The position numbers and the translations under genes are program-made. Shown in pieces: positions 29,221 through 59,988 of a stretch of DNA of 64,000 bases. How positions within the stretch are numbered: the first letter of the stretch is position 1; every line of letters begins with the position of its first letter. The DNA is from an uncultured Candidatus Saccharibacteria bacterium (GTDB lineage: Bacteria > Patescibacteriota > Minisyncoccia > UBA6257 > 2-01-FULL-56-20), in contig CAZAFA010000003.1 of the NCBI GenBank assembly GCA_964484655.1, forward strand, positions 28,147 through 92,146, read 5' to 3'. The notes below the pieces were generated by a model. That model saw only the letters and a list, made by a program, of their open reading frames with translations. It ran no database searches and was not told the DNA's origin.

Positions 29221-30561
29221 ATGGCACGCCGCACCGGCCCGCTGGTAGCGCTCGCAGGCATCGCCGCCCTCGCGGCGCTCTGCGTCGCCTCGCCGCGCTT
29301 CCTCGCCTTCTTCCATCACTACGCGAACTTCCTCGCCGTCGGGAGATCCTCGACGAAGCTGGCCGCGCTCGGCATCCTCGCGGCGATCGCCTGCGTCGCG
29401 CTCCTCATGCGTCCTCTGATGGCGGAATCACGTGCACGCAAGCTCCTCCACGGATGCCTCTACGCGCTGCTCGGCATCTCGCTGCTCTCCACGCTCGGCA
29501 TGGCTCTCCTGGGCGCGCGCATGGGCGTCCCCCTCAACACGACCTTCTACGCGGTCAACGACCGTGAGTTCAGCTTCAGCCACCTGACCCACAGCCATCT
29601 CCTCAGGCCAGTCAGCTATCCGGCACAGGCTGTCGTCAGCAACGAGGTCGGCACCGCATGGTTCGACGTGCTGCGTACGTTCTTCGGGATACCCCGTCCG
29701 GCGCTCGTCGCATTCTACGGCGCCTATGCGGCCTTCCTCGCCGTACTCGGCATCGCGAGCCTCGCGTACCTCCAGCACCTGCGCGGCGGCGCGCTCATCG
29801 CGCTCTATCTCGCCGGCATCGCCGCGGTCCTCAAGAGCGGCGTGGACGGCGCGTTCCTGGACCTCGCGGCGCTGCTCGGGATCCTCGTCATCGGATGGAT
29901 GCTGCGGGACCGCTTCCTGGCGCTGCTGCCGGTTCCCTTCCTCGTCTTGAACGCGTACGTCTGGTTCACGCCGACCTACGGCGCGCAGCTCGCCGTCAGC
30001 CTCATGCTCTTCGGATGCCTCGCGCTGATCCTCGCCGCGACGCGTTCCCGCGGCATCCTCCGCCTCGCCAGCTCCGGGGCAGCCCTGCTCGTCGCGCTCG
30101 CCTTCGTCTGGGGCGGGAGCCGGGTCTCCTTCTTCGGCGGCGACGCAGAAGCCGCGACGCCTTCGGACGAGCCTGTCATCCCGGCCCAGCAGGCCGTGTA
30201 CTTCCTCCCGCGCGGATCCGGCTTCCCGCAACGGGTCACGACGACCGCGACGACGAGCCCGGCTGCGTTCGTGCGCGCGCACGACGCGGTCTTCGAGAAC
30301 CTCCAGGAATCGCTGCGCATGCCAGACAGCACCTGCCGCGAAGGCCAGCGGCAGATGCTCCTCACGAGGATACGCATCTTCACGCCGGCTGCGGAAGCCG
30401 CGGAGTCGTTCAGCGTGCCCCCCTGGATCGAAGCTGCCTACAGCAACGGGTACTACCGCGTCACCATGGATTCCTGCATGCCGAACCTCCTGCCTTCGCT
30501 GGTCAGGACCGTGAAGACGAGGTTCCCTGACGAGGTCATCGTGATCGCCTTCCTGCGCTAG
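29221..30561 (+). CDS. Polytopic membrane protein (about 9 TM) with a C-terminal soluble domain, function unknown
   Basis: 446-aa ORF with many hydrophobic helices. Convergent with, and overlapping by 26 nt, the CarS-like gene. Confidence 0.5.
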   Translation: MARRTGPLVALAGIAALAALCVASPRFLAFFHHYANFLAVGRSSTKLAALGILAAIACVALLMRPLMAESRARKLLHGCLYALLGISLLSTLGMALLGARMGVPLNTTFYAVNDREFSFSHLTHSHLLRPVSYPAQAVVSNEVGTAWFDVLRTFFGIPRPALVAFYGAYAAFLAVLGIASLAYLQHLRGGALIALYLAGIAAVLKSGVDGAFLDLAALLGILVIGWMLRDRFLALLPVPFLVLNAYVWFTPTYGAQLAVSLMLFGCLALILAATRSRGILRLASSGAALLVALAFVWGGSRVSFFGGDAEAATPSDEPVIPAQQAVYFLPRGSGFPQRVTTTATTSPAAFVRAHDAVFENLQESLRMPDSTCREGQRQMLLTRIRIFTPAAEAAESFSVPPWIEAAYSNGYYRVTMDSCMPNLLPSLVRTVKTRFPDEVIVIAFLR

Positions 30562-31066
30562 CGGCGTGCAGGGCAGCAGAGCGGATGCCGAACGCCGCCG
30601 CCGCGGCGTTCGCGGTCGCCTGGAACCCGAAGACGAAGACGAGGTAATATACAGCTGAGAATCCTGGCGGATGCACGTCCAGGAGAGACAAGCCGATGAT
30701 CACCGCCAGCGCGTAGTCGACGTGGTCGAGTACCGACCGCGTGCCCTCCTTCATGCCCAGCCGGCGCTTGACGAAGCTGCTCGCGAGAGTGCCGGCAAGC
30801 GCGAAGAGCCCGAGCATGAAGCCGAGCCTCGGATCGCCTTGCAGCCATCCCACCGTCCCGGCGCAGAGTACAATGAACGCGGAACCGGCGACGGTACGGC
30901 TGTCCCCGAGGATGCGATGGCGGCCGAGACGTCGCCCGCCATCGAGCGGCGTCGCGGGCAGGATCCGCCAGCGCGCGATCAGGAAGTACCAGAAGACGGC
31001 GGTCGCGGCGTTCGCGATCCAAGCAGGAGCACCGTACCACACGGTGCTCATGAGCAGATCGATCAT
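30536..31066 (-). CDS. CDP-archaeol synthase-like (DUF46/CarS family) CTP-transferase membrane protein
   Basis: WRILPATPLDGGRRLGRHRILGDSRT and C-terminal SFVKRRLGMKEGTRSVLDHVD match the CarS/CdsA-superfamily signature. 176 aa, 4-5 TM. Its start overlaps the LamG gene stop (ATGA). Confidence 0.55.
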   Translation of the reverse strand: MIDLLMSTVWYGAPAWIANAATAVFWYFLIARWRILPATPLDGGRRLGRHRILGDSRTVAGSAFIVLCAGTVGWLQGDPRLGFMLGLFALAGTLASSFVKRRLGMKEGTRSVLDHVDYALAVIIGLSLLDVHPPGFSAVYYLVFVFGFQATANAAAAAFGIRSAALHAASAGRRSR

Positions 31067-32718
31067 CTAGGCGTCATCGGGTCTGGGGGTTCGTCGCCGC
31101 CGCCCGGAGGAGGCGCTCCAAAGTACAAATTATGCAAGGCGATGATATCGCTCTGGCTAAGGGCCCCGTTATAGATGCGCAGCTCGTCAATGGTGATGTC
31201 ACCATCTCCCTTGTTACCGAGGCTCATATAGTCTCCGAATATTGACGTTTCGCTCGATGCAGGATGCGAAGGATTGCTCCCATACGTCTCGAAGAGCAGG
31301 ATGCCATCCTGATACACCATGCCATGCCCACCCTCGCGAACAATGGTTATCATCTTCCAACTATACGGGGCAAGCGTGTTGGTATTAGCTGAAAGCCAGG
31401 TAGCCCATCCTCCGTCAGCTTTTGACTCACCAAAAAAGGACCAACCGCTTGGGTCTCCACCGTATCCCGAGATGCGACTTCCCGCCTGTAGGCGAATATG
31501 GTAATCGACCTGCAATCCGTCGAGGTCACCCTTCTTGAAGACATTCCATTGCCGAGATGAATCAGACACGGACCCGTCCGCGTTAACGTTCCATAGGAAG
31601 TTGATACTCATATCTCCAGGGAGCTGCATGGACGGTGAATCGGGCACGGTCATTCGATTGTTTGAAAAGAGCATACCTGTGTTGCTGAAGCCGGCTGGCC
31701 ACGAATTTATGTCGAAGGTGCCATAGTTCAAATATTCACTGTTGTCTCCAGCGGTATTGCCGCTACCCTCGTCAAAAGACCAATGTCCGACTAATGTCGC
31801 GATTACTCCGCAAGTATTGTTCGCGTTGTAGATGCTGTCATTACAGTCGATGCCTACCTGCTGTATATAGCGCCGCCTGCCGTTGGTAGGAGCGGAATCT
31901 TGCAGATACATCGTACTGGCCGCAGGATAACCGTCTGCATCAGAGTCAACCTGCCAGATGTTTGTCTGAAGGATGGCACAGCCGCCGCAGAGCGCGATAC
32001 TTCCGTTCGAAAGGATCGAAATTTGCATACCGCTGTTGAAAGCGAAGTTTGCATTAAGCGTCAAGGAATTATTGATGGTAACGTTGCCGTTATCGACTCC
32101 GTCCGCTGACGATATGACGCAGGGATCGTCCTTGTCCCCAAGGGTATAGTCGCCTCCTGGTGGAATACCGCAGGCGTCGGACCAAGCGAGAACCACTGAT
32201 GAGGAATCATTACCTGCCTCGGCCGTGATGGTCGTATAGTACTTGGTGTTATGCGTGTCGTGCACGACCCACTCTCCACGATAGCGTCCGCGAATAACCT
32301 CATCTGCAAAAGCATTCTGCGTATTGGTCTTTTCGCGACCAGCTACGAAGCCGGCAAGCCGATCCGGCACAGCCTCAGCAACTCCGACATAAGCTAGATT
32401 CAACCGAACGATCTTGTTGTCAGTCTCAATGTCAGCATAGACCGCAGTGACCGGTCCGCGAGATTCGATGACCGCCTCGATGACCTGCGTGTCGCCGACG
32501 TGCACATCAGGCGGGTTGATCGTCGCCTGGACGATCTTCGGCCATACCTCGGCCGCCTGTGCGATCGAGTAAGTCTGCTCGCCGCTCGGCAGGTTCGCGA
32601 GAGGTCCCGTTGGTGCAGGTTTGTCGAGCTTGTCGTAGTAGCTTATCGGGAGGAGTGCGAGCACCGCAATCGCGAGAAGGCTCCCCGCTCCTAAGCCGAA
32701 CATGAGTTTCCTATTCAT
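31063..32718 (-). CDS. Secreted or anchored protein with a C-terminal LamG/concanavalin-like lectin domain. Locally lower GC.
   Basis: N-terminal signal/TM (MNRKLMFGLGAGSLLAIAVLALL). C-terminal LVGHWSFDEGSGNTAGDNSEYLNYGT...LRIYNGALSQSDIIAL is typical of the Laminin_G_3 domain. Asn/Ser/Gly/Cys-rich middle. Confidence 0.6.
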   Translation of the reverse strand: MNRKLMFGLGAGSLLAIAVLALLPISYYDKLDKPAPTGPLANLPSGEQTYSIAQAAEVWPKIVQATINPPDVHVGDTQVIEAVIESRGPVTAVYADIETDNKIVRLNLAYVGVAEAVPDRLAGFVAGREKTNTQNAFADEVIRGRYRGEWVVHDTHNTKYYTTITAEAGNDSSSVVLAWSDACGIPPGGDYTLGDKDDPCVISSADGVDNGNVTINNSLTLNANFAFNSGMQISILSNGSIALCGGCAILQTNIWQVDSDADGYPAASTMYLQDSAPTNGRRRYIQQVGIDCNDSIYNANNTCGVIATLVGHWSFDEGSGNTAGDNSEYLNYGTFDINSWPAGFSNTGMLFSNNRMTVPDSPSMQLPGDMSINFLWNVNADGSVSDSSRQWNVFKKGDLDGLQVDYHIRLQAGSRISGYGGDPSGWSFFGESKADGGWATWLSANTNTLAPYSWKMITIVREGGHGMVYQDGILLFETYGSNPSHPASSETSIFGDYMSLGNKGDGDITIDELRIYNGALSQSDIIALHNLYFGAPPPGGGDEPPDPMTPR

Positions 32719-32721
32719 GCT

Positions 32722-35700
32722 CTACGGGATTATGAAGCCGGTCGCCTTGTCGGTTGTGCGGTTGCTCCACGAATCAGCATCGAACCGCGGCGCGGTAAAG
32801 CGATAGCTGACCTCGACCGAGTCGCGCTTCTCGAACGGGGTAGCGATGATGGTCAGCGTGCCGTCGCCCTTCTCGTAGCGTACGCGGCCGTCGAAGCCAG
32901 GAGTCAGGAGGATTGAGGCCTTCGGTAGATGCTTGCGGATGTCGGTCACCTTGCCGAAGAGCCAGAGATCGGAGCCATGGTCCTCCTTGGCGAAGTCGAT
33001 GAGCTTCACGCAGCGGCCGTCCACGCATGAAATCTCGAGATCGCCAGCGACCTCTTCCTTCACGCCGATCATACCGGCCATGTAGGTCGCGAACTTTTCG
33101 TTTCCAATCTGATAGATCGGGTCGATAGTACCGACGTTGATCTTTCCTGCGCCATCTCCGATGGTGAGCGTATCCCCTGAGCTGGTACCGATTCGCGCGG
33201 TCGTGCCGCCGGCGCTTGCGACGTCGAGCAGGTACCCCGGCGTCTTGGTGCCGATACCCACGTTGCCGCTCGCGAAGAAGGTGTAGACTCCGCCGCCGCC
33301 GCCTGACGCGAGAGCGATCTGGTTGGTGGTCGTGCCGAGATACCCGTTGCGGAACTGGATCGCCGACCACCAACTCCCCTCACCTTCGATCGTCAGGCCG
33401 TTGTAGCCGTTGTCATAGATCCGGTTGCTGATGCTGCCGTTGCTGTGCCAGGCAAGCGAGGATGAGGTGTTCATGATCAGGCGATCCGTGGATCCGAAGT
33501 TCGGGAAGGCAGAGGCGCCTGAGATTCCAAGTACTAAGTTTCCGCTCTGCGTGATGCTGGCGATTTCGTTGCCGCCTGTGTTGAAGATACCGAGGCGATT
33601 TGCTGGAAGGCTCACGTCGTTGCTGCCACGGTTATCGACGAACCAGGTGTTCGAATTGCTCGTGAAGTTGATGCCGGCGATACCAGATCCCGTGCTCGCG
33701 GCTATCCGCGCCTGGCTGCTGCCGGTTGTGCCGACGCTCAAGAGGTTACCGCTGGCGGTTGTACTCAGCGTCACAGTGCCTGGGAACGTGTAGTTCCCGC
33801 CGCCGGTGTTCGCGCCGAAACTTCCCGAAGAAACGTTGGCTGCCGCGATCGTGCCACTGCCGCTGGCTGCGGTTGTCTGTGTCGTGCCGTCCGGGAAACG
33901 GAATCCGCCCGACGAGCTATAGATGGTACCAGCGACTGTAAGCTTGTAGCCAGGCGTCGTTGTGGCAATACCTACGTTTCCGTTCGCTTGTATCTTCATC
34001 AAATTACCGCCACCCGCGCTTGTGAACTGCCAGTATTCATTAGTTCCACAGCCGGTCGAACCAAAGGTAACTTGCTGCGCTCCTGCTATGTACTGGGCGA
34101 ACATACCGCAGGAATCAGCAGCATTATTCGCGAAATAAAGTGCCCCACTTCCAATATCAAGGCGTCCACTTGGTGTAGCGATGCCAATACCGACGCTCCC
34201 GTCTGATCGAACGGTGAGGCGCTGCGTGCCACCAGTTGAAAGACTGATGGTGTCGCCTCCGCTCCAATACAAACCTGTATTGGTATCACCTATCGCGGCC
34301 AGCGACGGTGCTGCCGCGGATCCGTTCGTCATCCCAACCGTGCCGTCGGCCATGACGCCAAAGTTGGTGCCCGTTCCACCGACACCTCCATCACCCGCGG
34401 GACCGACGCAGAAGCGATATGTGCCACCATAGCATCCTATGCCGACCTGCTGACCGAGGAAATAGGTATCCCAGCCACCGCCTGCGCCGATCACCGTGTT
34501 GCTCGGATTGTTGCTGTTACCGATGACAAGTCTGCCGAGCGGCTGATTCGATACCGCATTGAGCGTGGTGAAGCCGGCACCTCCTGTTGCACTCACGTTG
34601 AAGTAGTAATTACCGCTGGCATCACCGTTGAAGCGTACACTGCCAGGGAAGGTATAAATGCCGCCGCCAGTATTTGCCCCAAACTGTCCGGATGAAACAT
34701 TTGCGGCAGACATTGTTCCCGCTGCCGCCGTCGTCTGAGTCGTACCATCGGGGAACCGGAACCCACCTGAGGAGCTATGAATAGTGCCTACTACTTGGAG
34801 CTTGTACTGGGGATCGCTGGTGCCTATGCCGACATTACTAGTGCTCCAGTCAATATTGAGAAGATCGACCCCGGCCGTCTCGTCCCGAATGATGAAATCG
34901 TAGTAACGCCCGGTCACTGCAGCTCCGCCGTACGGAGTAAGGATGCTGTACGTCTTTGTGTTGGAGCCGTTACCTGACGCGATCCGCATCGCAGCATCGT
35001 TCTGGTACGTATTTGATCCAAGCTGGAGTAAGGATCCGGGGCTTGTCGTTCCGATACCCGTGTTGCCGTTAGCCAGAATTGTCATACGTACGTTCGCGTT
35101 CGTGCCAAAACTCAAGGGATGATTCGAATATGTGCCAAGAATCATGCCCGCTGGTGCGCCCCACCAACCGATCTCATGCGCGAGAACGCGTGCATCGATA
35201 GCTGCAGTACGAACTGATAGCTTCGCGTGGCTGGCGCCAAGGATATCGAGTACGCGGCTCCAACCCTCACTATTCTCTGGCGAAGTGGTCCCCACTACGA
35301 CATGCGCAGGAAAGGCGTAATTTCCGCCTCCAGTGTTAGCGCCGAACGAACCAGCGGAGATGTTTGCTGCTGCCATAGTACTACTTCCAGAAACAGCTGC
35401 CGTCGACTGTGTCGTACCGTCAGGGAACATGATGTAGCCCGCGCTAGTGATCGAAAGAAGTCTGGTGCCCGCGCTATTCTGGGTATCGATGATGTTTGCC
35501 GACTGGCTGGCTGCTCCGCGCACAACCATGACTGGCTGCGTCGCGGTCCAGGCATTGCCGAAGAAGTTCGCTGCCGACTGCGCGCTGCCGACGCCGAAGT
35601 AGGAGCGCATATTGGCCGTGTCATAACCGAAATTCGTGCCAAGGATACCGGTCGTGGTAATTCGGAACTGTTCTGTTGAATTTGGCCTGAATACAAACGG

Positions 35701-36354
35701 AAGTGAAGCATTAGTATCAAACCAGAGTCCGGTGCCTCCGTATCCGAAGATGGTTCCGACCGGGGATCCGTTACCAACAAAGCTAATTGTAGGATAGTAG
35801 CCCCCTGCAGGAGCATAGAGTGTCAGACCCGGGTTTACTGAGGACACGTCGGCATAGATACGACTACCGCCCAAACTCGTCCTGTTAATATCGAGATTAT
35901 ATGAGGGAGCGGTACCGATACCGACGCTTGAAGGGAAGGTATAGTTCCCGCCACCCGTGTTCGCACCGAACTGGCCCGAGGAGACGTTCGGGGCTGACAT
36001 GGTGCTGCCCAGCGCGGTCCCGTTCACAGTCAGCGTCCCCTGGACGTTGGTCGTGCCGTCGTTGCGCACCCAGAAGAGCGAGGATCCGGCGGAGTTGTAG
36101 GCGTGGACGGCATACGCCGCGGAGGTCGTGCCGCTGCCGTAGACGTTCAGGCGGTTCGCCGACGCGACCGTGCTCGATCCGATAGCGACGTTGTTACTCG
36201 CATCGGTCGCGATTGCGCCGCTGCCGACGCCGCCAGAACCGGAAGGCCCGATGAACGCGTCAGCGACGCTGATCGCGATCACGCCCGCTGCGATGAGGCC
36301 GGATACGCCGAGCGCGATCAGCCCGAACGCTGGTGATGACTGCCGGAGGCGCAT
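32722..36354 (-). CDS. Giant (1210 aa) Gly/Ser/Thr/Asn-rich cell-surface repeat protein with fibre-like, beta-helical-looking repeats
   Basis: N-terminal signal/TM (FGLIALGVSGLIAAGVIAISVADA). Four copies of an (M/I)SAANVSSG(Q/S)FGANTGGGNYTFPG motif and three copies of FRFPDGTTQTTAA. A compact C-terminal domain of about 110 aa. Confidence 0.6.
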   Translation of the reverse strand: MRLRQSSPAFGLIALGVSGLIAAGVIAISVADAFIGPSGSGGVGSGAIATDASNNVAIGSSTVASANRLNVYGSGTTSAAYAVHAYNSAGSSLFWVRNDGTTNVQGTLTVNGTALGSTMSAPNVSSGQFGANTGGGNYTFPSSVGIGTAPSYNLDINRTSLGGSRIYADVSSVNPGLTLYAPAGGYYPTISFVGNGSPVGTIFGYGGTGLWFDTNASLPFVFRPNSTEQFRITTTGILGTNFGYDTANMRSYFGVGSAQSAANFFGNAWTATQPVMVVRGAASQSANIIDTQNSAGTRLLSITSAGYIMFPDGTTQSTAAVSGSSTMAAANISAGSFGANTGGGNYAFPAHVVVGTTSPENSEGWSRVLDILGASHAKLSVRTAAIDARVLAHEIGWWGAPAGMILGTYSNHPLSFGTNANVRMTILANGNTGIGTTSPGSLLQLGSNTYQNDAAMRIASGNGSNTKTYSILTPYGGAAVTGRYYDFIIRDETAGVDLLNIDWSTSNVGIGTSDPQYKLQVVGTIHSSSGGFRFPDGTTQTTAAAGTMSAANVSSGQFGANTGGGIYTFPGSVRFNGDASGNYYFNVSATGGAGFTTLNAVSNQPLGRLVIGNSNNPSNTVIGAGGGWDTYFLGQQVGIGCYGGTYRFCVGPAGDGGVGGTGTNFGVMADGTVGMTNGSAAAPSLAAIGDTNTGLYWSGGDTISLSTGGTQRLTVRSDGSVGIGIATPSGRLDIGSGALYFANNAADSCGMFAQYIAGAQQVTFGSTGCGTNEYWQFTSAGGGNLMKIQANGNVGIATTTPGYKLTVAGTIYSSSGGFRFPDGTTQTTAASGSGTIAAANVSSGSFGANTGGGNYTFPGTVTLSTTASGNLLSVGTTGSSQARIAASTGSGIAGINFTSNSNTWFVDNRGSNDVSLPANRLGIFNTGGNEIASITQSGNLVLGISGASAFPNFGSTDRLIMNTSSSLAWHSNGSISNRIYDNGYNGLTIEGEGSWWSAIQFRNGYLGTTTNQIALASGGGGGVYTFFASGNVGIGTKTPGYLLDVASAGGTTARIGTSSGDTLTIGDGAGKINVGTIDPIYQIGNEKFATYMAGMIGVKEEVAGDLEISCVDGRCVKLIDFAKEDHGSDLWLFGKVTDIRKHLPKASILLTPGFDGRVRYEKGDGTLTIIATPFEKRDSVEVSYRFTAPRFDADSWSNRTTDKATGFIIP

Positions 36355-36363
36355 GGGTACCGC

Positions 36364-36927
36364 TTAGCGCGACGCGACGACGAGATAGCCGATCGGGCCT
36401 TGCGAGGGACCGCCGAGGTTGCTGCAGAAGAACTGGTACTTGCCGGTCGCGGTCGCAGGCGGCGTCACTTCGATGAGCTGTTCGCGCTGCGACGTGAACG
36501 TTGCAGAGAGCCCGAGGTCGGGCTGCACGAACGAGCAGGTGCCGCTGGTCGTCTTGAAGCGGATCGAGGTCGTATCGCCAGCGTGCACGATAACATTCGC
36601 AGGTGAGAACGTGTTTCCGTTGAACGTAATGTCGAACGTGCGCCGCTTTGCCTCGACACCCGGCGCGGCCGGAGCGACGCTTACCGGCACGGCGACATCG
36701 CCGCTTACCTGTGCGCCCGCGTCAGGTACGACGATGTCGGTTGGGACTTCGGACCGGGTCGTCGTCGTCGCTACACCTTGGTTCTGGTTGCCGTTCTGAC
36801 CTCCCTGTCCGGCGGGAGCCTTACGGGCGATCGACCAGCCGATGAGCAAGCCCGCAGCGAGAACCGCGGCGAGGATAGCTATCTCGGCGACCGTCACGAG
36901 ACGAGAGCGAGTTTCGGGGTTGTTCAT
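36364..36927 (-). CDS. Membrane-anchored extracytoplasmic protein with a weak resemblance to a cupredoxin-like beta-sandwich
   Basis: ORF trimmed to MNNPETRSRLVTVAEIAILAAVLAAGLLIGW (TM anchor). Low-complexity Gln/Asn/Gly linker, then a beta-rich domain ...VIVHAGDTTSIRFKTTSGTCSF...KYQFFCSNLGG. Confidence 0.4.
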   Translation of the reverse strand: MNNPETRSRLVTVAEIAILAAVLAAGLLIGWSIARKAPAGQGGQNGNQNQGVATTTTRSEVPTDIVVPDAGAQVSGDVAVPVSVAPAAPGVEAKRRTFDITFNGNTFSPANVIVHAGDTTSIRFKTTSGTCSFVQPDLGLSATFTSQREQLIEVTPPATATGKYQFFCSNLGGPSQGPIGYLVVASR

Positions 36928-36970
36928 GGGAATATCATACCACAGCGGATATGCGATCCGCTGGGGATTA

Positions 36971-37798
36971 CTAGAGCGCGACCCAGACGTAGCTCGAGCT
37001 TGCGTTCCGCAGGCACGCCTCAATCGAGTCGCTCCCCGCTCCGGCCTGGGTCACCCAGAGCATGCCGCGGATGCTGCTGGTACAGCTCGGCTTCCCGGAA
37101 GCGGTGTTCAGGCGCACGCCGCCGTCCACCTCGAGCTTCGCGTTCGGGCTCGCCGAGCCGATGCCTACATTGCCCGAGGAGAAGTAGATGACGTCGTTGA
37201 TGTTGCTCCAGAGCTGTCCGCTCGCGCCGAGCTTGTACGCGTTGCTCGAGCTCGGGAGGACGTCCGCGTCGAAGCTCGCGGCGGAGACGCGCGTCACGAG
37301 GACGTCCAGGAAGCGCGCGACCTGGCGCGTCGTCGCCTGCGCGTTGCTGATCGTGAGGTTGACGCTGAGCGCGTCCTTGCCGCCCGGGTTGCTCCTCTTG
37401 GTGAACGTCGCGTTCGCGACGGTGACCGCGTCGGTGGTCAGCGCCTGCGCGGCGTCATTCCCCTGCTTCAGCCATACCTTGCTGTCGCTGACCCAGATGC
37501 TCGTCGGGTCCACCGACGAGCTCGCCATGCGCAGCATGACGCCCGAGGAAGCGACGGCGGACGTCCCCTCGATGTAGCTGCTCTGCTCGACGAGGCGCTG
37601 CACCTGCGCGAGCACGAAGTCGCTCTGCTGGTTCACCTCGTTGCTCGCGCTCTGCTTTGCCTGCACGCGGACGACCGCGACGAGGATCGAGATGAAGGAG
37701 ATGCTCACGAGCGCGAAGATCGCCGCGAACAGCAGCAGCTCGATCGTCGAGAATCCCTTTCGCGAGACGGTACGCTTCATGCCGGAAGTATACCGCAT
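36971..37798 (-). CDS. Type IV pilin or pseudopilin-like protein
   Basis: Class III leader with KG|FSTIELLLFAAIFALVSISF (prepilin peptidase site, E+5) and a C-terminal disulfide loop C-x22-C. The start is ATG at 37798 or 37780. Confidence 0.7.
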   Translation of the reverse strand: MRYTSGMKRTVSRKGFSTIELLLFAAIFALVSISFISILVAVVRVQAKQSASNEVNQQSDFVLAQVQRLVEQSSYIEGTSAVASSGVMLRMASSSVDPTSIWVSDSKVWLKQGNDAAQALTTDAVTVANATFTKRSNPGGKDALSVNLTISNAQATTRQVARFLDVLVTRVSAASFDADVLPSSSNAYKLGASGQLWSNINDVIYFSSGNVGIGSASPNAKLEVDGGVRLNTASGKPSCTSSIRGMLWVTQAGAGSDSIEACLRNASSSYVWVAL

Positions 37799-37806
37799 CC
37801 GCTCCC

Positions 37807-39356
37807 CTAGCTGCTCGCGGCGCCTCGCGTCTTCGGCGTCACCCAGAAGCCGAGCCGGAACCGGCCGCCGAGCGCGAGACGCGTCTGCGCCTCCAAGCCT
37901 GGGAAAGCGCCGAAGACGATCAGCGAGAGCGGGAGGAGGAGCCACTGCAGCACGAACCACGCGTACTGCCGCTTCCTGAAGTTGGCTGGACGCGGCGGAA
38001 GGAGCGTGATCGCCATGATCGCCGACGAGACGATCGTCACCATGGAGAGGGTGATGACGAAACGCGTGATGCGCGGGAGGTTGTACGAGAGGAGCGTGTT
38101 GTTGAACGCCTCACCGCCGAGCATGAGCGGGAGCCAGCCGAGCACGAAGATCATGATGCTGTTGGTCGCCCAAGAGTGGAATCCCTCGAGGCCGGAGAAG
38201 GTCCAATAGAGCTTCTTGCGCAGCGCGATGCGCTTGTTCTCGATGAATCCCTCGAGCATGTACGGCATGTTCTCGACGCCCCAGCCCCAGCGGCGCTGCT
38301 GCTTGTAGAGGTTGATCATGGTCTTCCAGAAGCTCGGGACGACGTTCGCGTCCATGTACACCGGGAAGTGGAGCGGTACCACCGAGAAGTCGCCGTCGTA
38401 GCGGAAGAACGCCTGCCAGAAGATGCGCGAGTCCTCTGAGACGACGTCCTTGTGCCAGTACCCGACGTCCATGAGGAGCCGCAGCGGGACCGCCTGCGAC
38501 GAGAAGGTCGTCAGGCGCTCCGGCCGGGACTGCTGCATCATCTGCCAGAACGTGCAGCTCCAGGCGATGACGCGCCCGAGCGCTGGCGTCTCGTACACGT
38601 TGTTGGTGAAGAACGGCACCGGCTGATAGATCTTCCGGAGCGGGTCGGGCGAGGTGAGGTAGGCGTGCGCGACGCGGCCGAAGTATCCGTTCGGGATCTG
38701 CGTGTCCACGTCGAAGACGGAGACGATGACGCGACGGGGGTCGACGCCCTTCTCGGTGATGAGCTTCGGCACCGCGATCGCCCCGGCGTACGCCTCGTTG
38801 CTCCCCTTCCCCTGGATCTCGCCAGGCAGGCCGTCCGGATGGACGGTGACGAGGAACGAGCCGAAGCGCGACCCGAACTCCTCCTCGATCAGACGCGCGG
38901 TCTCGAGCGGCGCGTCGCCTGCGCGCTCCTCGAGCGCGAGCACGACGTCGAACGACTCGAGCGGATAGCGCGCCTGCGTCAGGGAACGGAAGCTCTCGCG
39001 CACGAGCTCGTACGGCTCGGTGTACATCGGCAGCATGATGAGATGCCGGATATCGCGCCACGAGCCGATTCCCTCGACGGTGAGATCGTCCGGTTTGAGC
39101 TCGTCGAGCCGCGCTTCCCAGTCCACGTCGAGGTTCGCGCGCAGCTTCTTGTAGGTGGACCGGAGGTGGAACGCGAGGAAGACGGACTTCAGGAGCCAGT
39201 ACGTATCGAAGAGGATGATGAAGATGGCGGCCCAGACCGGCACGAGCCATGAGGCGAGGACCATGCCGACGAGTGTCGCCCAGGCGAGGATCGCCGGCAC
39301 TGTCTCGAAGAACCGCATGCGGCGGCTCTTCCTGGCGGGATACGCGTCGGCGTCCA
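37807..39356 (-). CDS. Processive family-2 glycosyltransferase (cellulose/chitin/NodC-type synthase-like). Integral membrane.
   Basis: ORF 37807..39651 trimmed to MDADAYP. Motifs VFDVDTQ (DxD) and QQRRWGWG (QxxRW). N- and C-terminal TM bundles. Confidence 0.65.
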
Positions 39357-39450
39357 TCTGATGCAATGGTAGCGCGCAGGGCGCTTGAAGCCTGGGGATA
39401 CTACGCCCGGCTTCACGGAGCGGCAAGGTGGCCATGCTATCCTCCTTTAT

Positions 39451-39804
39451 ATGAAGGACATACCGCCCATCGTATTCATAGCCGGAGCTGTCGTGCTCGG
39501 AGTCGTCGCCCTGGCCCTCCTCATCTTCTTCCGGCCGCGGACGGCGGTCGTGCAGACGCCGGCTCAACCCGGACTCCCCACGCAGACCCAGGGCGTCCTG
39601 AAGGGCTTCGACAGCTACAACCTGCCCGGATCTCCCGAGGGCATCTCCCAACCGAACACGACCCGTCTACCCGGGAAGCCTGCGCCGACCACGCAGCCGC
39701 AGGAACCGACATACTGCACGCAGGACGCGATGCTCTGCCCGGACGGCAGCTACGTCGGCCGCGTGCCGCCGAGCTGCCAGTTCGCGGCGTGCCCGGGGAG
39801 CTAG
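39451..39804 (+). CDS. Small membrane-anchored, Pro/Thr/Gln-rich protein with a C-terminal 4-Cys module
   Basis: ORF 39385..39804 trimmed to MKDIPPIVFIAGAVVLGVVALALLIFF. Ends with ...YCTQDAMLCPDGSYVGRVPPSCQFAACPGS. Confidence 0.45.
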   Translation: MKDIPPIVFIAGAVVLGVVALALLIFFRPRTAVVQTPAQPGLPTQTQGVLKGFDSYNLPGSPEGISQPNTTRLPGKPAPTTQPQEPTYCTQDAMLCPDGSYVGRVPPSCQFAACPGS

Positions 39805-39862
39805 CGTGTAAAAAATAAGCTCAGAAATTATTTGAGGGCATCATGCGATGCCCTCAAATACT

Positions 39863-40249
39863 TCATAGCGTCTCTTTTTCGGTTCCAAAGAATCTATGTA
39901 TAACCTCGTCGAAAGTATCGGCTCCTCCCGGCAGATGTTCCCTGACCGCCCAGGCGAAACCGACGAAGCCATTTCGAAACTTATTGCCGATGTATTCATC
40001 AGCAAGATCGGGATACAGATCCAGCTTGAAGATCGCGCTGAATGACCGAAGCATGACCTCTATTCCGCTCGCATACGGATTGCTCCGTATGAGGCAGGAC
40101 GCCTTGTGTTGGGCAGCATCGAGCATGGCTGCGACAACGTCGTCCTCGGTCATTCCGGCTGATTTTTTCTCTACAACCTCCAAGATTGCGGTTCGTAATT
40201 CCGATATCTTCTTTTCTCTCTCTTTCTGCTTTGCAGAAAAATTTCCCAT
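39863..40249 (-). CDS. Hypothetical protein (128 aa) in a low-GC islet
   Basis: ORF MGNFSAKQKEREKKISELRTAILEVV... Local GC is about 45% against about 67% background. Confidence 0.45.
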   Translation of the reverse strand: MGNFSAKQKEREKKISELRTAILEVVEKKSAGMTEDDVVAAMLDAAQHKASCLIRSNPYASGIEVMLRSFSAIFKLDLYPDLADEYIGNKFRNGFVGFAWAVREHLPGGADTFDEVIHRFFGTEKETL

Positions 40250-40347: not shown

Positions 40348-40425
40348 TGGTAGCCCCAACGGGATTCGAACCCGTGTTTTCGCCGTGAAAGGGCGACGTC
40401 CTGGACCGGGCTAGACGATAGGGCC
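40348..40425 (-). tRNA. trnE: tRNA-Glu (anticodon UUC), 3'-CCA encoded
   Basis: GGCCCTATCGTCTAGCCCGGTCCAGGACGTCGCCCTTTCACGGCGAAAACACGGGTTCGAATCCCGTTGGGGCTACCA closely resembles canonical bacterial tRNA-Glu. Confidence 0.75.
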
Positions 40426-54223: not shown

Positions 54224-55267
54224 TCAGAAGAAGCGGGCGAGGAAGTAGAGCAGCAGGCCGAGGACGCTCGCGATCGCCGAGACGATCCAGAAGCGCATCG
54301 TCACCTGGGTCTCCGGCCATCCGAGCGCCTCGAAGTGGTGGTGCACCGGAGCGGAGCGGAAGACCTTCCGCTTGAACACCTTCTTGCTGAAGACCTGGAT
54401 GATGACCGACAGCGACTCGAAGACGAGGATTATCGCGAACAGCGGCAGGAAGAGCGCCGAGTTGGTCAGCATCGCGATCGTGCCGATGGTGATGCCGATC
54501 GCCATCGATCCCGTATCGCCCATGAAGAACCGCGCGGGATAGATGTTGTACCAGAGGAACGCGAGCAGCGCGCCCACGAGCGCGCCGCCGAATACCGCGA
54601 GGTCGAAGCGGCCGATCGAGAAGGCCACGGCCACGAGCGCGAGGATCGTGAACAGGGAGGTGCCGCCGAGCAGGCCGTCCAGGCCGTCCGTCTCGTTCGC
54701 GGAGAAGGCCGAGGCGATCAGGACGAGCATGAACAGCGGCACGTACCACCAGCCGATCGCGAACGAGCCGAGGAACGGCACCTGGATCACGTCGAAGCCC
54801 AGACGGACGTAGAACCACCATGCGCCGAGCGCGGCGAGCGCGGTGTAGACCAGGATCTTGTGCTTGACCGTCAGTCCCCCGCCCTTGCCCCCGCCCTTGC
54901 GCCGGGCATTGAACCAGTCGTCGAGGAATCCGAGCGTGCCCGCGAGCACGAGCGCCGCGAGCGGCAGGTAGGTCTCGGCGCGCGAGACGAAGTTCAGGTA
55001 CTCGAAGATGCCGTCGAAGACGGTGCCGAACGCCCAGAGGATGAGCGCGATCCCGGTCACGGTCCCCCAGATGATGACGCCGCCGCCGTTGAGCGTTCCC
55101 GCCTTCTTCTGGTGCAGTTGGCTGAACACCGGCGTCTCCTCGCCGGTGCGGATGCTCTTGCCGAAGCCGAGACGCTCGAGGATCTCGAGCCAGAAGGGCG
55201 TCGCGATGAGCGCTACGAGGAACGCGAGCGTCGTGACGGAGATGATGCGGATGCCTTCGGCGATCAC
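54224..55267 (-). CDS. mraY: Phospho-N-acetylmuramoyl-pentapeptide transferase MraY
   Basis: ORF 54224..55516 trimmed to a GTG that overlaps the upstream stop (GTGA). MGDTGS, HHHFE motifs. Confidence 0.85.
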   Translation of the reverse strand: MIAEGIRIISVTTLAFLVALIATPFWLEILERLGFGKSIRTGEETPVFSQLHQKKAGTLNGGGVIIWGTVTGIALILWAFGTVFDGIFEYLNFVSRAETYLPLAALVLAGTLGFLDDWFNARRKGGGKGGGLTVKHKILVYTALAALGAWWFYVRLGFDVIQVPFLGSFAIGWWYVPLFMLVLIASAFSANETDGLDGLLGGTSLFTILALVAVAFSIGRFDLAVFGGALVGALLAFLWYNIYPARFFMGDTGSMAIGITIGTIAMLTNSALFLPLFAIILVFESLSVIIQVFSKKVFKRKVFRSAPVHHHFEALGWPETQVTMRFWIVSAIASVLGLLLYFLARFF

Positions 55268-56187
55268 GGGTTCTGCTTGAGTGTCTTGAGGAGCCTGCGG
55301 GTATCGCCGAAGCGATCGTCGCTCCCGAGCACGATCAGGGCCTCGATCCGCGGCCCGACCTGGAAGAGGGAGAGGAGGTTGCCTCGCGCCTCGTCCGTGT
55401 AGCCCGTCTTGCCGCCCAGGAAACCCGGGTCGCGGACGAGCTCGTGCGTCGCGTAGGCAGTATACGCCACCCCGGTGCCCTGCGCATGCACGGTGACCGA
55501 CCCGCGCCGGGTCCATTGGAAAACCTCAGGGAACTCGGCATGTATCCGCTGCACGAGCGTCAGGAGCTCGCGCCCCGTGCTCTTGTTGCCGGGCGAGAGG
55601 CCGGACGCGTCCGCGTACGCGGTGCGCTGCAGGCCCCAGGCGCGCGCGGCCGCGTTCATCTCCCCGAGGAAGCGCTCGCGGCCGACGTGCGCGGCGAGGC
55701 TCTCGGCCGCCTCGTTCGAGGACGCGACGAGCATGACGGCGAGGACGTCCCGCATGGCGAACGTCTCGCCTGCGGGCAGGACGGGCCGCGACGGATTCCC
55801 GCCGGGCACCGGGACGATGACGATCGGCTCGTCGGCCGCGATGTCGCGCAGCGCGATCGTCGCGGTCATGAGCTTGGTCAGCGAGGCCATCGGCCACGCA
55901 TCCGTGCTCCTGCGGCTCGCGAGCACCTGGTCGGCGGCGAGGTCGCCGGCCACGAAGATGCGCGCGCCGATGACGTCGGGCGGCGTGCTCGACGCGGTGC
56001 TGGTCGCCGTGCTCGTGGCCGTCGCGACCGTGGAGGTCGCCTCCGGGACCTGCGCCGTGGAGGTCGCCGCGACCGGATCGCCCGGCTGCTCCGCGCGGCG
56101 CGCGGCCGCGCTCATCGTGCCGGCGATCGCGATCACCAGGAGCAGGGCGGCTCCGCCGCCGAAGAGCGCCGCCTGACGCTGCGTCAT
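55264..56187 (-). CDS. D-alanyl-D-alanine carboxypeptidase (PBP5-like, peptidase S11)
   Basis: Signal/TM. SxxK (ASLTKLMTA), SxN (SSNEAA), KTG (GGKTGYT). Confidence 0.8.
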   Translation of the reverse strand: MTQRQAALFGGGAALLLVIAIAGTMSAAARRAEQPGDPVAATSTAQVPEATSTVATATSTATSTASSTPPDVIGARIFVAGDLAADQVLASRRSTDAWPMASLTKLMTATIALRDIAADEPIVIVPVPGGNPSRPVLPAGETFAMRDVLAVMLVASSNEAAESLAAHVGRERFLGEMNAAARAWGLQRTAYADASGLSPGNKSTGRELLTLVQRIHAEFPEVFQWTRRGSVTVHAQGTGVAYTAYATHELVRDPGFLGGKTGYTDEARGNLLSLFQVGPRIEALIVLGSDDRFGDTRRLLKTLKQNP

Positions 56188-56768: not shown

Positions 56769-57486
56769 GCTCGAGGACTATATCGGAGAAGGCCTCCTCC
56801 TGCACCAGCACGACCTTCTGGTCGCGCGCGAGATGGAGCGCGGCGAGGAACACGACGATGCGGTCCCCCGCGCTGCGTCCCGCGACCAGCTCGGAGAAGC
56901 GCGCCGCGCCGCCGCTCGCGAGACGGTGCACGAGGTCCGAGATCGCCTTCTGCAGCGAGATGACCCGGTGCCGGACCTCCGCGACCTCCTTGGCTACCTG
57001 CGTCGCCAGCTGCAGCACGCGCGCCGCCGTCGCGTGCAAATCGGCAATGGCGAGCCCGTCGGGCGGCGCGAACACGCGCGCCGAGCCGCGCATCCCCTTG
57101 AGGTAGGGCCGCGCCACGAGCGGCCGCCGCTTGGCGTACGCGCGCCGGAACGCGAGGAGCGCCGGCTTCACCGCCTGGTACGCGCGCAGCTGCTCCGCCA
57201 GCAGCTGCGGATCCTCCGCCTCGTCTTCCGCCTCGTCGCCCGGCAGCAGCGAGCGCGACTTGAGCAGCAGGAGGCGCGTCGCGACCGTCAGGAAATCGGC
57301 GATCGCGTGCACCACGGACACCGTCCGCGGCTCCGGCGTACGCGCGAGCTCGTTCACGTAGCGGAGGAAGTCCGCCGTGACGTGCGCGAGGCTCACCTCG
57401 GTGATGTCGAGCTTGTCCCGCTCGACGAGCTCGAGGAGCGCCTCGAGCGGCCCCGAGAAGGTCCCGACCTCGACCTCGTACCTCAT
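56752..57486 (-). CDS. scpA: Segregation and condensation protein A
   Basis: ...FSGPLEALLELVERDKLDITEVSLAHVTADFLRYV... Confidence 0.8.
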   Translation of the reverse strand: MRYEVEVGTFSGPLEALLELVERDKLDITEVSLAHVTADFLRYVNELARTPEPRTVSVVHAIADFLTVATRLLLLKSRSLLPGDEAEDEAEDPQLLAEQLRAYQAVKPALLAFRRAYAKRRPLVARPYLKGMRGSARVFAPPDGLAIADLHATAARVLQLATQVAKEVAEVRHRVISLQKAISDLVHRLASGGAARFSELVAGRSAGDRIVVFLAALHLARDQKVVLVQEEAFSDIVLEHGSAA

Positions 57487-58803
57487 GGCGCGAGCCAGGA
57501 CGCCGCTGCGGCGATGTCAGCGATAGAGGTCGCGGCGACGACCACGTGACGCTTCTCGCCTCCGATCGGCAGCGTCAGGGTTGCTACGGCCGGCCCTTCG
57601 CCGGCGCCCCCGAAGAAGCCCGGGAGCGCGAGCAGCTCGTCCGAGAACCGCAGGTCGCTCCAGATCGGCGGATCGTACGCGAGGTTGCCGCGCGCGGCCT
57701 TCGTCAGGCCGAGCACGAAGCTGCGGTTCTCGGCGAGGTAGCGCGCGAGCACGGCGAGGTCCGCGATGGTCGTGGTATTGCCCGGATCTGCGGCATCGAC
57801 GGAGACCACCTGCGTATGCCCCATGCCGATCGCCGACGCCTTGGCGTTCATATACTTCACGAACGCCTGCTCGTTGCGCGCGCCCGCGATGGCGTGCGCC
57901 GCGCCCGCGTCGTGCTCAGAGAGCATGAGGCGTAGCAGGTCGAGAACGCTCGCGCTGCCGAGCCCTGCGAGGCGAGGCGAGCCCGGCTGATCCACGTTCA
58001 CCCGGCTCTCAATGTTGATGTAGTCGACCGCGGTCAGCGCGGTTAGCAGGTCGATCGCCTGCCCGAACGGGATCTGCGCGCCTGCCTCGCGCGAGCGGAT
58101 CGTCGCGCCGCTCGGGACGTCCACGATCGCGTAGGTGCCCGCCGCATCCGGACTGCCGGAAAACGTGGGGAGCTCGGGAGCCTCGATCGGCGACTTGTAG
58201 ACGAGCACCGGCGTGCCGACCTCGACCGCCTCGTACACGAGCTGGGCGTTCTCGTCGCTCAGGCGGATGCATCCGCCCGAGTACTGGCTGCTGACCGGCG
58301 TGCCGTCCGGGTAATACGGCCATCCGTGGATGAAGAAGTTGCCCTGGAAGACGAGGCTCCAGGGCTGGTACACGTGCCCAAAGGTGGAGAAGTGGTTCCG
58401 CGCCTTGCTCTTCACGCTGTAGACGCCGACCGGCGTCTCCCACCACGAGCCTTCCTTTCCCTTCGTCTTGATCGGGACGTCGATGACCACCTCGCCGTCC
58501 TTGTAGACCTTGAGCTGCATGTCGCTGAGGTCGGCTTCCACGAAGGTGCGCCGCTCCGCCACGTACTGGTCGCGGACGGTGAGCACGTACGAGCCGGACG
58601 CCGGCGTCGACGAGGCGAGATCCTCGTCGTCGGGGAAGACCGCGGCGACCGCGCCTATCGCCTGCTGGACCTTGTCCCCCGCCGCCTGCGCACGGAACAG
58701 GTCCGGCAGCAGCGCCGACGCCGCGAGCAGGAGCCCTGTGAAGAGCAGGGCGGCGAGGCCGAGGACGAGCGGCAGGGAAGGGTGGGTTAGCAGGCGCTTC
58801 ACG
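57483..58803 (-). CDS. Membrane-anchored L,D-transpeptidase (YkuD domain) fused to a C-terminal PBP5/S11-like domain
   Basis: ORF 57483..59249 trimmed to the GTG at about 58803 (VKRLLTHPSLPLVLGLAALLFTG), because the upstream part is antisense to dnaX. Motif HGWPYYPDGTPVSSQYSGGCIRL. Confidence 0.65.
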
Positions 58804-58887
58804 GGGCTATTATGCCGATTCGAACCCGACGGTTCTACCCTTCGGGCGCGCTTTGCCAATTCCCGGCCTGCGGCGATAATGCGCCCG

Positions 58888-59988
58888 ATGGCCTCCTTGT
58901 ACCGCGCGCACCGCCCGAAGACGCTTGCCGACCTCGTCGGCCAGGACCAGGTGACGGCGGTGCTCCGCAACGCTGCCGCACAGGGGCAGCTCGGGCACGC
59001 GTACCTCTTCTCGGGGCCGCGCGGGACTGGCAAGACCACGACGGCGCGCATCCTCGCGAAGCTCCTCGTGTGCCGGAAGCGGGAGGAGGACCCCGCGTTC
59101 GCCCTCGCGGGCGAGGCCTGCAACGCCTGCGACCGGTGCGCGGCCGTGGATAGCGGTTCGCTCCTCGACGTGGTGGAGATCGACGCCGCGAGCAACCGCG
59201 GCATCGACGAGATCCGCGAGCTGCGCGAGCGCATCCGCGCCGTGCCCACGCAGGCTCCGAAGAAGGTCTACATCGTCGACGAGGCGCACATGCTCACGAC
59301 GCAAGCATGGAACGCGCTCCTGAAGACCCTCGAGGAGCCGCCGGCGCACGGGGTCATCGTGCTCGCCACGACCGACCACGAGAAGCTGCCCGCCACCATC
59401 ACCTCGCGCGTGCAGCGGTTCCGGTTCCGTAAGCCGGGCAAGAAGGACCTCCTCGCGAAGCTCGGCGCCGTCGCGGAGAAGGAAGGCATCGCCATCGAGC
59501 CGGCGGCCCTCGAGCTCATCGCCGCGGTCTCCGGCGGCAGCTTCCGCGACGCCGAGTCGCTCCTCGAGCAGGCGCGCGGCCTGAGCCAGCCCGTCACCGC
59601 TGCCTCCGTCGCCGAGCTGATCGGACGCTCCGCCGTCGGACGCGTGCAGGCCCTCGCCGAGGCGATCGCTTCGTCGGACGCAGCCGCGGCGCTCTCGCTC
59701 CTCAAGGAGGCGGAGGCCTCGGGGGCGAACCTCACCGAGCTCGCCCGCGAGCTCGTGCACGCGTTCAAGCGCGCGACGGCGCTCGCGGCGGACGCGTCCC
59801 TGTCCTCGCTCTACGAGGACGAGCTCACCGCCGAGGAGCTCGACGGCATCCGCCGCCTCGCCGCGTCCCTCTCGCCGGAGCGCGGTGCGGCGGTCACGCG
59901 CGCCTTCCTAGAGGCGTTCCGCGAGATGCGCACGAGCCCGTTCGAGGCCGTGCCGCTGGAGATCGCGATACTGGAGGTCACCCGCTGA
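58888..59988 (+). CDS. dnaX: DNA polymerase III subunit gamma/tau, short form (about 367 aa, domains I-III)
   Basis: ORF 58510..59988 trimmed to MASLYRAHRPKTLADLVGQ (alternative ATG at 58879). GPRGTGKTT Walker A, Zn module CRKREEDPAFALAGEACNACDRC, SRC motif region. Confidence 0.8.
   Translation: MASLYRAHRPKTLADLVGQDQVTAVLRNAAAQGQLGHAYLFSGPRGTGKTTTARILAKLLVCRKREEDPAFALAGEACNACDRCAAVDSGSLLDVVEIDAASNRGIDEIRELRERIRAVPTQAPKKVYIVDEAHMLTTQAWNALLKTLEEPPAHGVIVLATTDHEKLPATITSRVQRFRFRKPGKKDLLAKLGAVAEKEGIAIEPAALELIAAVSGGSFRDAESLLEQARGLSQPVTAASVAELIGRSAVGRVQALAEAIASSDAAAALSLLKEAEASGANLTELARELVHAFKRATALAADASLSSLYEDELTAEELDGIRRLAASLSPERGAAVTRAFLEAFREMRTSPFEAVPLEIAILEVTR

Follow-up and report, generated by a model that had tools for sequence, protein, structure and literature searches.

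We report that six co-directional minus-strand open reading frames (ORFs) at positions 30536-39435 of a 64,000-nucleotide stretch from an uncultured Candidatus Saccharibacteria bacterium (contig CAZAFA010000003.1, positions 28,147 to 92,146; hereafter the window) are best explained as three separate layers: a core family 2 glycosyltransferase (GT) synthase gene, a four-gene fibre cassette probably serving contact with a host or substrate, and, together with a convergent neighbouring gene, a lineage-specific pair. We put the probability of this explanation at about 55%. The cassette encodes, in order of transcription, a type IV pilin, a membrane-anchored cupredoxin-fold protein, a giant fibre protein and an anchored protein with a laminin G (LamG) domain, and we infer that its function is most likely that of a pilus-associated surface fibre. 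What exceeds chance in the array is the recurring order of these four middle genes in other genomes.

The order GT, pilin, cupredoxin, fibre and N-module protein, the N-module being the N-terminal part of the LamG protein, is the same as in the window in two other loci, L003 and L007, whose GTs are 79% and 81% identical to that of the window, respectively. In both, only the N-module of the last protein is shared and the LamG head is missing. With the C-terminal domain of the fibre protein (C-domain) as the query, a scan of representative genomes from GTDB returned 107 relatives, from which 80 loci were kept, and the neighbours of the fibre genes were assessed by hidden Markov model (HMM) mapping together with unbiased clustering of the neighbouring ORFs. 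The clustered neighbour families comprised the N-module family (33 loci), the cupredoxin family (20) and two pilin families (15 and 8), and the cassette is present, at least in part, in dozens of genomes. All C-domain relatives with credible organism names belong to Patescibacteria, across many lineages; the closest in GTDB (L010, 76% identity) is a Paceibacterota metagenome-assembled genome.

The window is ~66% GC and encodes ribosomal protein operons, EF-Tu/EF-G, SecY, RecG, TsaD and ValRS; within it, the array is bounded by RecG and a 446-aa membrane protein gene at one end and by tRNA-Glu and TsaD at the other. A sequence-only reading of this DNA, made by a model without database searches, had described six head-to-tail genes that looked like one surface appendage, polysaccharide and attachment module. 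The gene order it gave is confirmed by our ORFs and by independent gene calls on two identical public contigs, as is the close spacing: intergenic gaps in transcription order are 26, 43, 9 and 3 nt, all ≤43 nt, and the last two genes overlap in a stop/start ATGA at 31063-31066. The GT gene is likewise real, but its end lies at 39357, 1 nt from the 39356 then given. The motifs picked out at that stage are all present: the GT has FDVDT, SED and QQRRW, the pilin has KG↓FSTIELL, and by hydropathy each of the four middle proteins has a single N-terminal hydrophobic segment. The claim that the locus carries the lowest-GC coding DNA of the window holds for large genes, of which the LamG gene is the lowest (53.8%), but a 387-nt ORF at 39863-40249 is lower still, at 49%. 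Tight co-directional spacing is ordinary in this compact window, for example in the ribosomal run at 4.4-25.6 kb, so spacing alone is no evidence for a functional unit. A scan found no terminator-like site on the minus strand within the array, promoter and terminator counts being at chance level and uninformative, and Rfam and tRNA scans returned only tRNAs, with no RNA element in the locus.

Table 1. Coordinates of the array genes, their domains and the convergent membrane protein gene (window numbering).
Feature	Coordinates	Strand	Details
GT2 synthase	37807-39357 or 37807-39435	-	ORF; 516 aa or 542 aa
Type IV pilin	36971-37780	-	269 aa; alternative start 37798
Cupredoxin-like membrane protein	36364-36927	-	187 aa
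Fibre protein	32722-36354	-	1210 aa
Stalk segment homologous to Bd2133 beta-helix	33769-34395	-	fibre aa 654-862, residue-level alignment
Conserved C-terminal domain of fibre	32725-33174	-	aa 1061-1210
LamG protein	31063-32718	-	551 aa
N-module of LamG protein	31810-32718	-	aa 1-303
Laminin_G_3 head	31144-31488	-	aa 411-525, PF13385
CarS-like protein	30536-31066	-	176 aa
Polytopic membrane protein	29221-30561	+	446 aa

At the level of single proteins, the sequence-only reading fared well. Along the stalk segment, its fibre-like giant protein matches the crystallised stalk of Bd2133, a mosaic adhesive trimer (MAT) fibre of Bdellovibrio bacteriovorus (PDB 8ond, E 1.5e-13); it also matches the PHROG tail-fibre families 18345 and 9942 (E ~1e-13). 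What it had called an anchored beta-sandwich protein carries a Cupredoxin_1 domain (PF13473; E 7.8e-10, 39.2 bits, cut-off 27). The LamG domain passes PF13385 (E 2e-8, 35.0 bits, cut-off 27.6), and the CarS-like protein passes PF01864 (42.5 bits, cut-off 22) and matches A. pernix CarS (PDB 5guf, E 2e-5) with SFVKRRLG and LDxxD kept. The processive-type GT2 assignment agrees with a predicted fold that matches Chlorella virus hyaluronan synthase (HAS) and BcsA. For the type IV pilin, a class III signal conserved across the family speaks for the assignment, but the N_methyl model (PF07963) gave no match even at E ≤10 and TIGR02532 none at E ≤0.01, short models such as these being often missed.

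The fibre protein has a Sec-type signal peptide with the cleavage context AxA↓F-x-G-P, as seen in the alignment with homologues. Behind it lie an N-domain (~aa 44-156), four beta-helix-type modules and the C-terminal beta-sandwich domain, the modules being punctuated by the motifs G.FGANTGGG.Y.FP and FPDGTTQTTAA. One block of the stalk, GNVGI..T.P..KL.VAGTI.S.SGG..FPDG..QTTAASG., is nearly identical to Bd2133. Across the family, the ends are conserved (~156 aa at the N-terminus, ~150 aa at the C-terminus) and the middle is a variable mosaic, with total lengths from ~170 to >3,700 aa. No S74 domain (PF13884) was matched in the fibre. The C-domain follows the pattern TIDPxYxI..GSDLWLF..LTPxFDG..VSYRLTAPRFD, matches no Pfam model and is confidently predicted to fold as a beta-sandwich. 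The best matches to this fold, all of them weak, are the termini of tailspikes and tail fibres and the H-type lectins. A full HMM search with this domain yielded 1,242 representatives of 50%-identity clusters, 1,004 of them at E ≤1e-30, and among the best 150 listed it usually sits at the C-terminus of the protein. The only DNA repeat family in the 29-41 kb region (D1) comprises four copies that correspond to internal fibre motifs. A diversity-generating retroelement at the locus was considered and rejected, as that region contains no template/variable repeat pair.

Bdellovibrio MAT proteins are surface-displayed trimeric fibres that bind prey glycans (PMC10769870). Like Bd2133, the fibre protein is a large exported protein (~1,000 aa) with a signal peptide, followed by an N-domain that is conserved within its own family, as one of ~130 aa is among MATs; its beta-helix stalk is homologous by sequence, domains have been shuffled in mosaic fashion between paralogues and homologues, and the organism that makes it is a bacterium living on other bacteria. 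Unlike the MAT fibres, it has no S74 chaperone and ends in a private, conserved domain family in place of a variable tip. Its pairing with a cupredoxin anchor, a modular downstream protein and pilins is not described for MATs, and its setting is the Patescibacteria envelope, whereas MATs belong to a Gram-negative outer membrane. The protein also resembles phage tail fibres and tailspikes (PHROG 18345/9942, the Pam1 tailspike 7eea and R-pyocin fibres), both in its repeat motifs and in the fold of its terminal beta-sandwich.

The cupredoxin-like protein consists of an N-terminal transmembrane (TM) helix, a low-complexity linker and the Cupredoxin_1 domain. Type-1 copper ligands were not found: across 46 aligned family members no His or Met is conserved, leaving only C168 and, in most cases, a CxxC, which makes a type-1 copper site unlikely. 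A copper or electron-transfer role was rejected on the same non-conserved ligands. The gene is a dedicated partner of the fibre gene. In the 20 fibre loci that have one, the cupredoxin gene is always adjacent to the fibre gene and on the same strand, and in a test that ignores shared ancestry an upstream cupredoxin gene accompanied 12 of 14 fibres with the window-type N-domain versus 6 of 41 others (Fisher p = 3e-6). Cupredoxin-fibre pairs occur in tandem duplicate at nine loci (L012, L015, L016, L029, L032, L036, L039, L044 and L048). Within one such tandem run lies a bAvd/23S_rRNA_IVP-like gene (L009 295-672, same contig as L048; GCA_023380415.1), a possible sign that fibres are the target of a diversity-generating retroelement, but the 21 kb around it showed no reverse transcriptase.

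The pilin begins with MKRTVSRKG↓FSTIELLLFAAIFALVSISFISILVAVV, a class III signal with Glu at +5 and a hydrophobic alpha1 helix, and an alignment of 17 family members shows a G-F-T-[LI]-[IL]-E N-terminus in most of them. The protein is chimeric: in its C-terminal module, a fibre-type rung (GNVGIG..P.AKLEV.GG) is followed by two Cys ~23 residues apart near the C-terminus, conserved in the family and predicted to form a disulfide. Over residues 190-229 the pilin matches three MAT structures in their beta-helix motif, among them Bd2133 (8ond, E 5e-4), and the HpsC pseudopilin is a weak match (E 0.006). Pilins of the window type (270-aa family) lie upstream of the fibre in 8 loci. A 205-aa family is found in 15 loci, just downstream of very long fibres and on the opposite strand. 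A second architecture, found in other lineages and seen in L017, L025, L035, L061, L068, L071 and L081, combines fibres of 2,000-3,000 aa bearing the same C-terminal domain with 2-3 subsequent small pilin-like genes (170-240 aa) on the opposite strand, and has no cupredoxin or N-module gene.

Modular minor pilins with grafted lectin modules are exemplified by PilB/PilC of Streptococcus sanguinis, and adhesins of the PilY1 type act at the pilus tip. The window resembles these type IV pilus adhesin systems in that an extra C-terminal module is attached to a pilin whose class III signal is canonical, and in that the cluster also encodes a domain of lectin type (LamG/ConA-like). Unlike them, the LamG domain is on a separate, anchored, non-pilin protein, the extra module of the pilin is a tail-fibre rung and no pilus assembly genes are nearby; nor has a fibre or cupredoxin partner of this sort been described for such systems. 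In cultivated Patescibacteria, host binding by pili is established: type IV pili mediate it in Saccharibacteria (PMC12206443).

Four parts make up the N-module of the downstream LamG protein: a TM helix, a part resembling Ig domains, a short one resembling a beta-helix and a DxDxDGY segment rich in Cys. A member of the N-module family immediately follows the fibre gene at 31 of the 86 fibre ORFs with enough flanking sequence, across 33 loci, and the heads that follow it vary: Bact_surface_Ig-like (9), PG_binding_1 (7), LamG (5), Hint (4) and fn3 (2). A sequence-level PDB search with the LamG protein gave nothing useful. Four relatives encoded downstream of fibres (L069 2604-5186, L072 3743-6355, L075 11231-13762 and L078 11235-13880) carry PG_binding_1, LamG and Bact_surface_Ig-like domains, in that order, and then, at the extreme C-terminus, a Hint/PT-HINT domain with no toxin domain after it.

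The first gene of the array belongs to the chromosomal backbone. GT homologues number >3,900 at ~60% identity, with a mean column identity of 70% and the labels Patescibacteria, Paceibacterota or Minisyncoccia. We sampled 80 metagenome loci around the GT and scored the 51 with 1.5 kb or more of downstream sequence. RecG immediately followed the GT in 21 of these, unrelated housekeeping genes did so in 20, pilin-like genes in 8 and TsaD in 2; in three further loci a pilin gene is divergent and upstream of the GT, and the GT also adjoins a pilin in several GTDB genomes. One relative with a GT of 63% identity has a convergent RecG right after it and lacks all the other array genes. Conversely, a GT was found within 10 kb in only 6 of the 80 fibre loci. 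Because RecG or housekeeping genes adjoin most sampled GTs, mostly without the cassette, we assign the GT as a very conserved core gene of a TsaD-GT-RecG backbone in Paceibacteria-like Patescibacteria. The cassette fills the gap between GT and RecG in about a fifth of sampled genomes and is thus recurrent, not obligate. One sampled contig (L168) is a palindrome, GT-RecG / RecG-GT, and is probably an assembly artefact.

In the GT itself, D216/D218 (FDVDT), S307-E308-D309 and Q353-Q-R-R-W357 are invariant in 21 homologues, and hydropathy segments lie at aa 16-63 and 400-490. The AlphaFold2 model has pLDDT >85 across the GT domain, with helical N- and C-terminal regions, and a Foldseek search with it returned 7sp8 (Cv-HAS, E 5.7e-10) as the top match, followed by 5ej1 (BcsA), 8smp (XlHAS1) and 8k3t (Chs1). 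Against PF13632 (Glyco_trans_2_3) the protein scored 22.0 bits, under the gathering score of 27, and a precomputed match to this model is present in many homologues; a sequence-level PDB search with the GT profile found no match. The modelled structure identifies the protein as a predicted membrane-integrated GT2 of the hyaluronan/cellulose-synthase type, which probably makes an envelope polysaccharide or glycolipid independently of its neighbour genes. It shares with HAS, BcsA and chitin synthase a GT-A domain set between N- and C-terminal TM helices and the DxD, [ST]ED and QxxRW motifs. It differs from them in lacking PilZ or any other regulatory domain, in having no sequence-level PDB match and a Pfam score under threshold, and in forming a Patescibacteria-specific, very conserved subfamily. 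Glycosylation of the pilin by the GT was considered and dropped, given the processive-synthase fold and the occurrence of the GT mostly without a pilin. The longer GT form starts at ATG 39435, preceded by a perfect AAGGAGG Shine-Dalgarno sequence, and the alternative ATG at 39357 coincides with the onset of conservation with homologues. A small TM protein with a Cys-rich C-terminus is encoded divergently from the GT at 39385-39804 (+), and at the same place in L003 and L007; the GT start region and any GT promoter must therefore overlap this gene.

The CarS-like gene at the other end of the array was found in none of the 80 fibre loci and none of the 80 GT loci. All 28 CarS-like homologues found carry PF01864 and just one is close, at 61% identity; its locus (L090) has the same fibre-LamG-CarS order and a convergent gene for a 449-aa membrane protein. 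In the window, the corresponding 446-aa protein has ~9-10 TM segments by hydropathy, and its gene converges on the CarS-like gene with a 3′ overlap of 26 nt. This gene is missing from L003, L007 and all 160 scanned loci, and its product has no Pfam, NCBIfam or PDB match. The CarS-like and 446-aa genes are a lineage-specific add-on pair outside the conserved cassette. They probably modify a lipid or carrier lipid, and their tie to the cassette is positional only. The CarS-like protein, a divergent, polytopic member of the CTP-transferase family, resembles the CDP-archaeol synthase CarS of A. pernix (5guf) in its PF01864 domain, equal length and SFVKRRLG and LDxxD motifs. Unlike CarS, it falls far under the cut-off of the equivalog NF003114 (64.4 bits against 148), is nearly an orphan and occurs in a bacterium, with no sign of an archaeal lipid pathway within the window. 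Its substrate probably differs from that of CarS.

Divergence and base composition also separate parts of the array. Identity to L003 is 79% for the GT, 70% for RecG and 67% for TsaD in the backbone, and 55% for the pilin, 56% for the cupredoxin protein and 48% for the N-module in the cassette, the fibre being mosaic. GC content at third codon positions (GC3) is 0.93 for the GT, 0.94 for the pilin, 0.77 for the cupredoxin gene, 0.67 for the fibre gene, 0.61 for the LamG gene and 0.80 for the CarS-like gene, against 0.85-0.96 in typical window genes; relatives show the same trend in weaker form. Composition and rates together fit an accessory, exchangeable and fast-evolving cassette, which does not amount to proof of horizontal transfer.

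Several other features of the window were recorded. The 387-nt ORF at 39863-40249 (-), between the GT and tRNA-Glu (40348-40425), encodes 128 aa and has a GC3 of 0.54, as compared with 0.85-0.96 elsewhere in the window. Its Shine-Dalgarno sequence is strong, and a perfect hairpin with a T-run lies after it (~39810-39860). No family match was found for it, it is missing from L003 and L007, and it looks like a recent horizontal acquisition beside a tRNA gene. Positions 1-590, upstream of tRNA-Trp and rpmG, are 46% GC within the 66% GC window and contain no convincing ORF and no Rfam match. Other envelope genes in the window encode a Glycos_transf_4 protein of the MraY/WecA type (54224-55516, -) and a YkuD L,D-transpeptidase fused to a Peptidase_S11 fragment (57483-59249, -).

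In the model that we propose, the core GT2 synthase would work apart from its neighbours within the TsaD-GT-RecG backbone, and the accessory cassette between GT and RecG would build a contact fibre. The fibre protein, exported by Sec as its signal peptide suggests, would form a trimeric beta-helix like those of MAT and tail fibres; the stalk homology is observed, and trimerisation and projection from the cell are predicted. Its C-terminal beta-sandwich would serve as a trimer cap or lectin-like tip, and the variable middle modules may give specificity. One-to-one pairing and co-occurrence suggest that the N-domain may be held at the membrane, or chaperoned, by the cupredoxin-fold protein. The fibre rung of the pilin may serve to join the fibre to a pilus of type IV, or to a pseudopilus, with the machinery for it encoded elsewhere, and the downstream anchored protein would add an interchangeable binding head, here LamG. 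The CarS-like and 446-aa genes would form the third layer, associated with the cassette by position. The single six-gene module of the sequence-only reading accordingly gives way at both ends, where the GT is a core gene and the CarS-like gene is found in 0 of 160 loci, but its middle four genes stand as a recurrent cassette. The attachment idea survives for those four, from homology and gene neighbourhood only, and no link between the cassette and a polysaccharide was found. The earlier supposition that the genome is reduced and possibly episymbiotic fits the named homologues (Patescibacteria group, Candidatus Paceibacterota, Minisyncoccia). A more far-reaching version, which we regard as tentative and on balance doubtful, is a phylum-wide host-recognition apparatus made of a trimeric fibre with a private C-domain cap, a copper-less cupredoxin dock, a rung-bearing pilin on or beside type IV pili, and a partner with a swappable lectin, peptidoglycan-binding or Ig head. 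If it were true, the host range of Patescibacteria episymbionts would be determined by the exchange of cassettes and their duplication in tandem.

Several observations weigh against a pilus-associated fibre for host contact. No type IV pilus machinery, including a prepilin peptidase and an assembly ATPase or platform, is encoded in the 64-kb window, and the pilin is missing from many cupredoxin-fibre cassettes, for example L008 and L012. The C-domain is the most conserved part of the fibre (74% identity to L003); as the tip of MAT and tail fibres is variable, the target of this domain may be a conserved one, conceivably part of the cell's own envelope, and specificity would then lie in the middle modules or the partner head, or the target would itself be conserved. 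The PG_binding_1 heads of the downstream relatives could bind the cell's own wall and not that of a host. Finally, the co-occurrence statistics, for cupredoxin and N-domain as for the others, take no account of shared ancestry. A rival view is that the cassette builds a self-directed envelope structure, such as a wall or S-layer scaffold or a link between sister cells, and has no part in host recognition. Strong conservation, and not variability, of the C-domain across the phylum, the frequency of PG_binding_1 among relatives of the downstream protein and the membrane anchor of the cupredoxin partner all favour it. We nevertheless consider it unlikely: the mosaic, fast-evolving fibre middle and the tandem duplicated and diversified cassettes form a pattern typical of recognition proteins, the downstream protein bears exchanged heads in different lineages, and the nearest characterised homologues are prey- and host-binding fibres.

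Less probable again is that all six genes make up one operon-machine combining polysaccharide synthesis, a lipid-carrier step and a pilus/fibre appendage. Such a machine would account for the shared strand, the gaps of ≤43 nt, the ATGA overlap, the lack of a minus-strand terminator-like site inside the array, products that are all membrane or exported proteins, and a GT placed beside a pilin in at least 8 sampled metagenome loci, divergently in 3 more, and in several GTDB genomes. It is at odds with the RecG or unrelated housekeeping gene directly downstream of 41 of the 51 sampled GTs, with the scarcity of GTs within 10 kb of fibre loci (6/80) and with the absence of the CarS-like gene from 160 loci, and codon composition splits native genes (GT, pilin) from atypical ones (cupredoxin, fibre, LamG). 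A prophage remnant or domesticated tail-fibre module without a cellular role would explain the PHROG tail-fibre matches, the resemblance of the C-domain fold to tailspike and tail-fibre termini, and a GC3 below that of the rest of the genome. We rejected a prophage origin as very improbable: neither the window nor the inspected related loci contain other phage genes, and the C-domain family was not found among 2.9 million IMG/VR contigs. Moreover, the four middle proteins each carry an N-terminal signal or anchor segment, and the GT-RecG chromosomal site recurs in several lineages.

Taken singly, the parts of the four-gene cassette are all of known kinds; their fixed combination seems to be undescribed, as does the private family of C-terminal domains. 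We found no description of the cassette in the searchable literature on cupredoxin in Patescibacteria, on MAT proteins outside Bdellovibrio, or on pilins, fibres and giant proteins of the Candidate Phyla Radiation. The array also holds a caution, in that operon-like spacing in compact genomes can merge a housekeeping gene, an accessory cassette and a lineage add-on into a seeming module. How the ultrasmall episymbiotic Patescibacteria find and hold their hosts is little understood beyond a few cultivated Saccharibacteria, in which type IV pili are implicated. The locus described here offers a concrete and widespread candidate for host contact, in the form of a protein that resembles tail fibres, has fixed partner genes and is tied to pilins in the genome, and because its sharply bounded C-terminal domain identifies the cassette, hypotheses on host range become testable. 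It would carry the principle of MAT and tail fibres beyond the predatory Bdellovibrio, into a second bacterial group that is unrelated to it and likewise lives on other cells.

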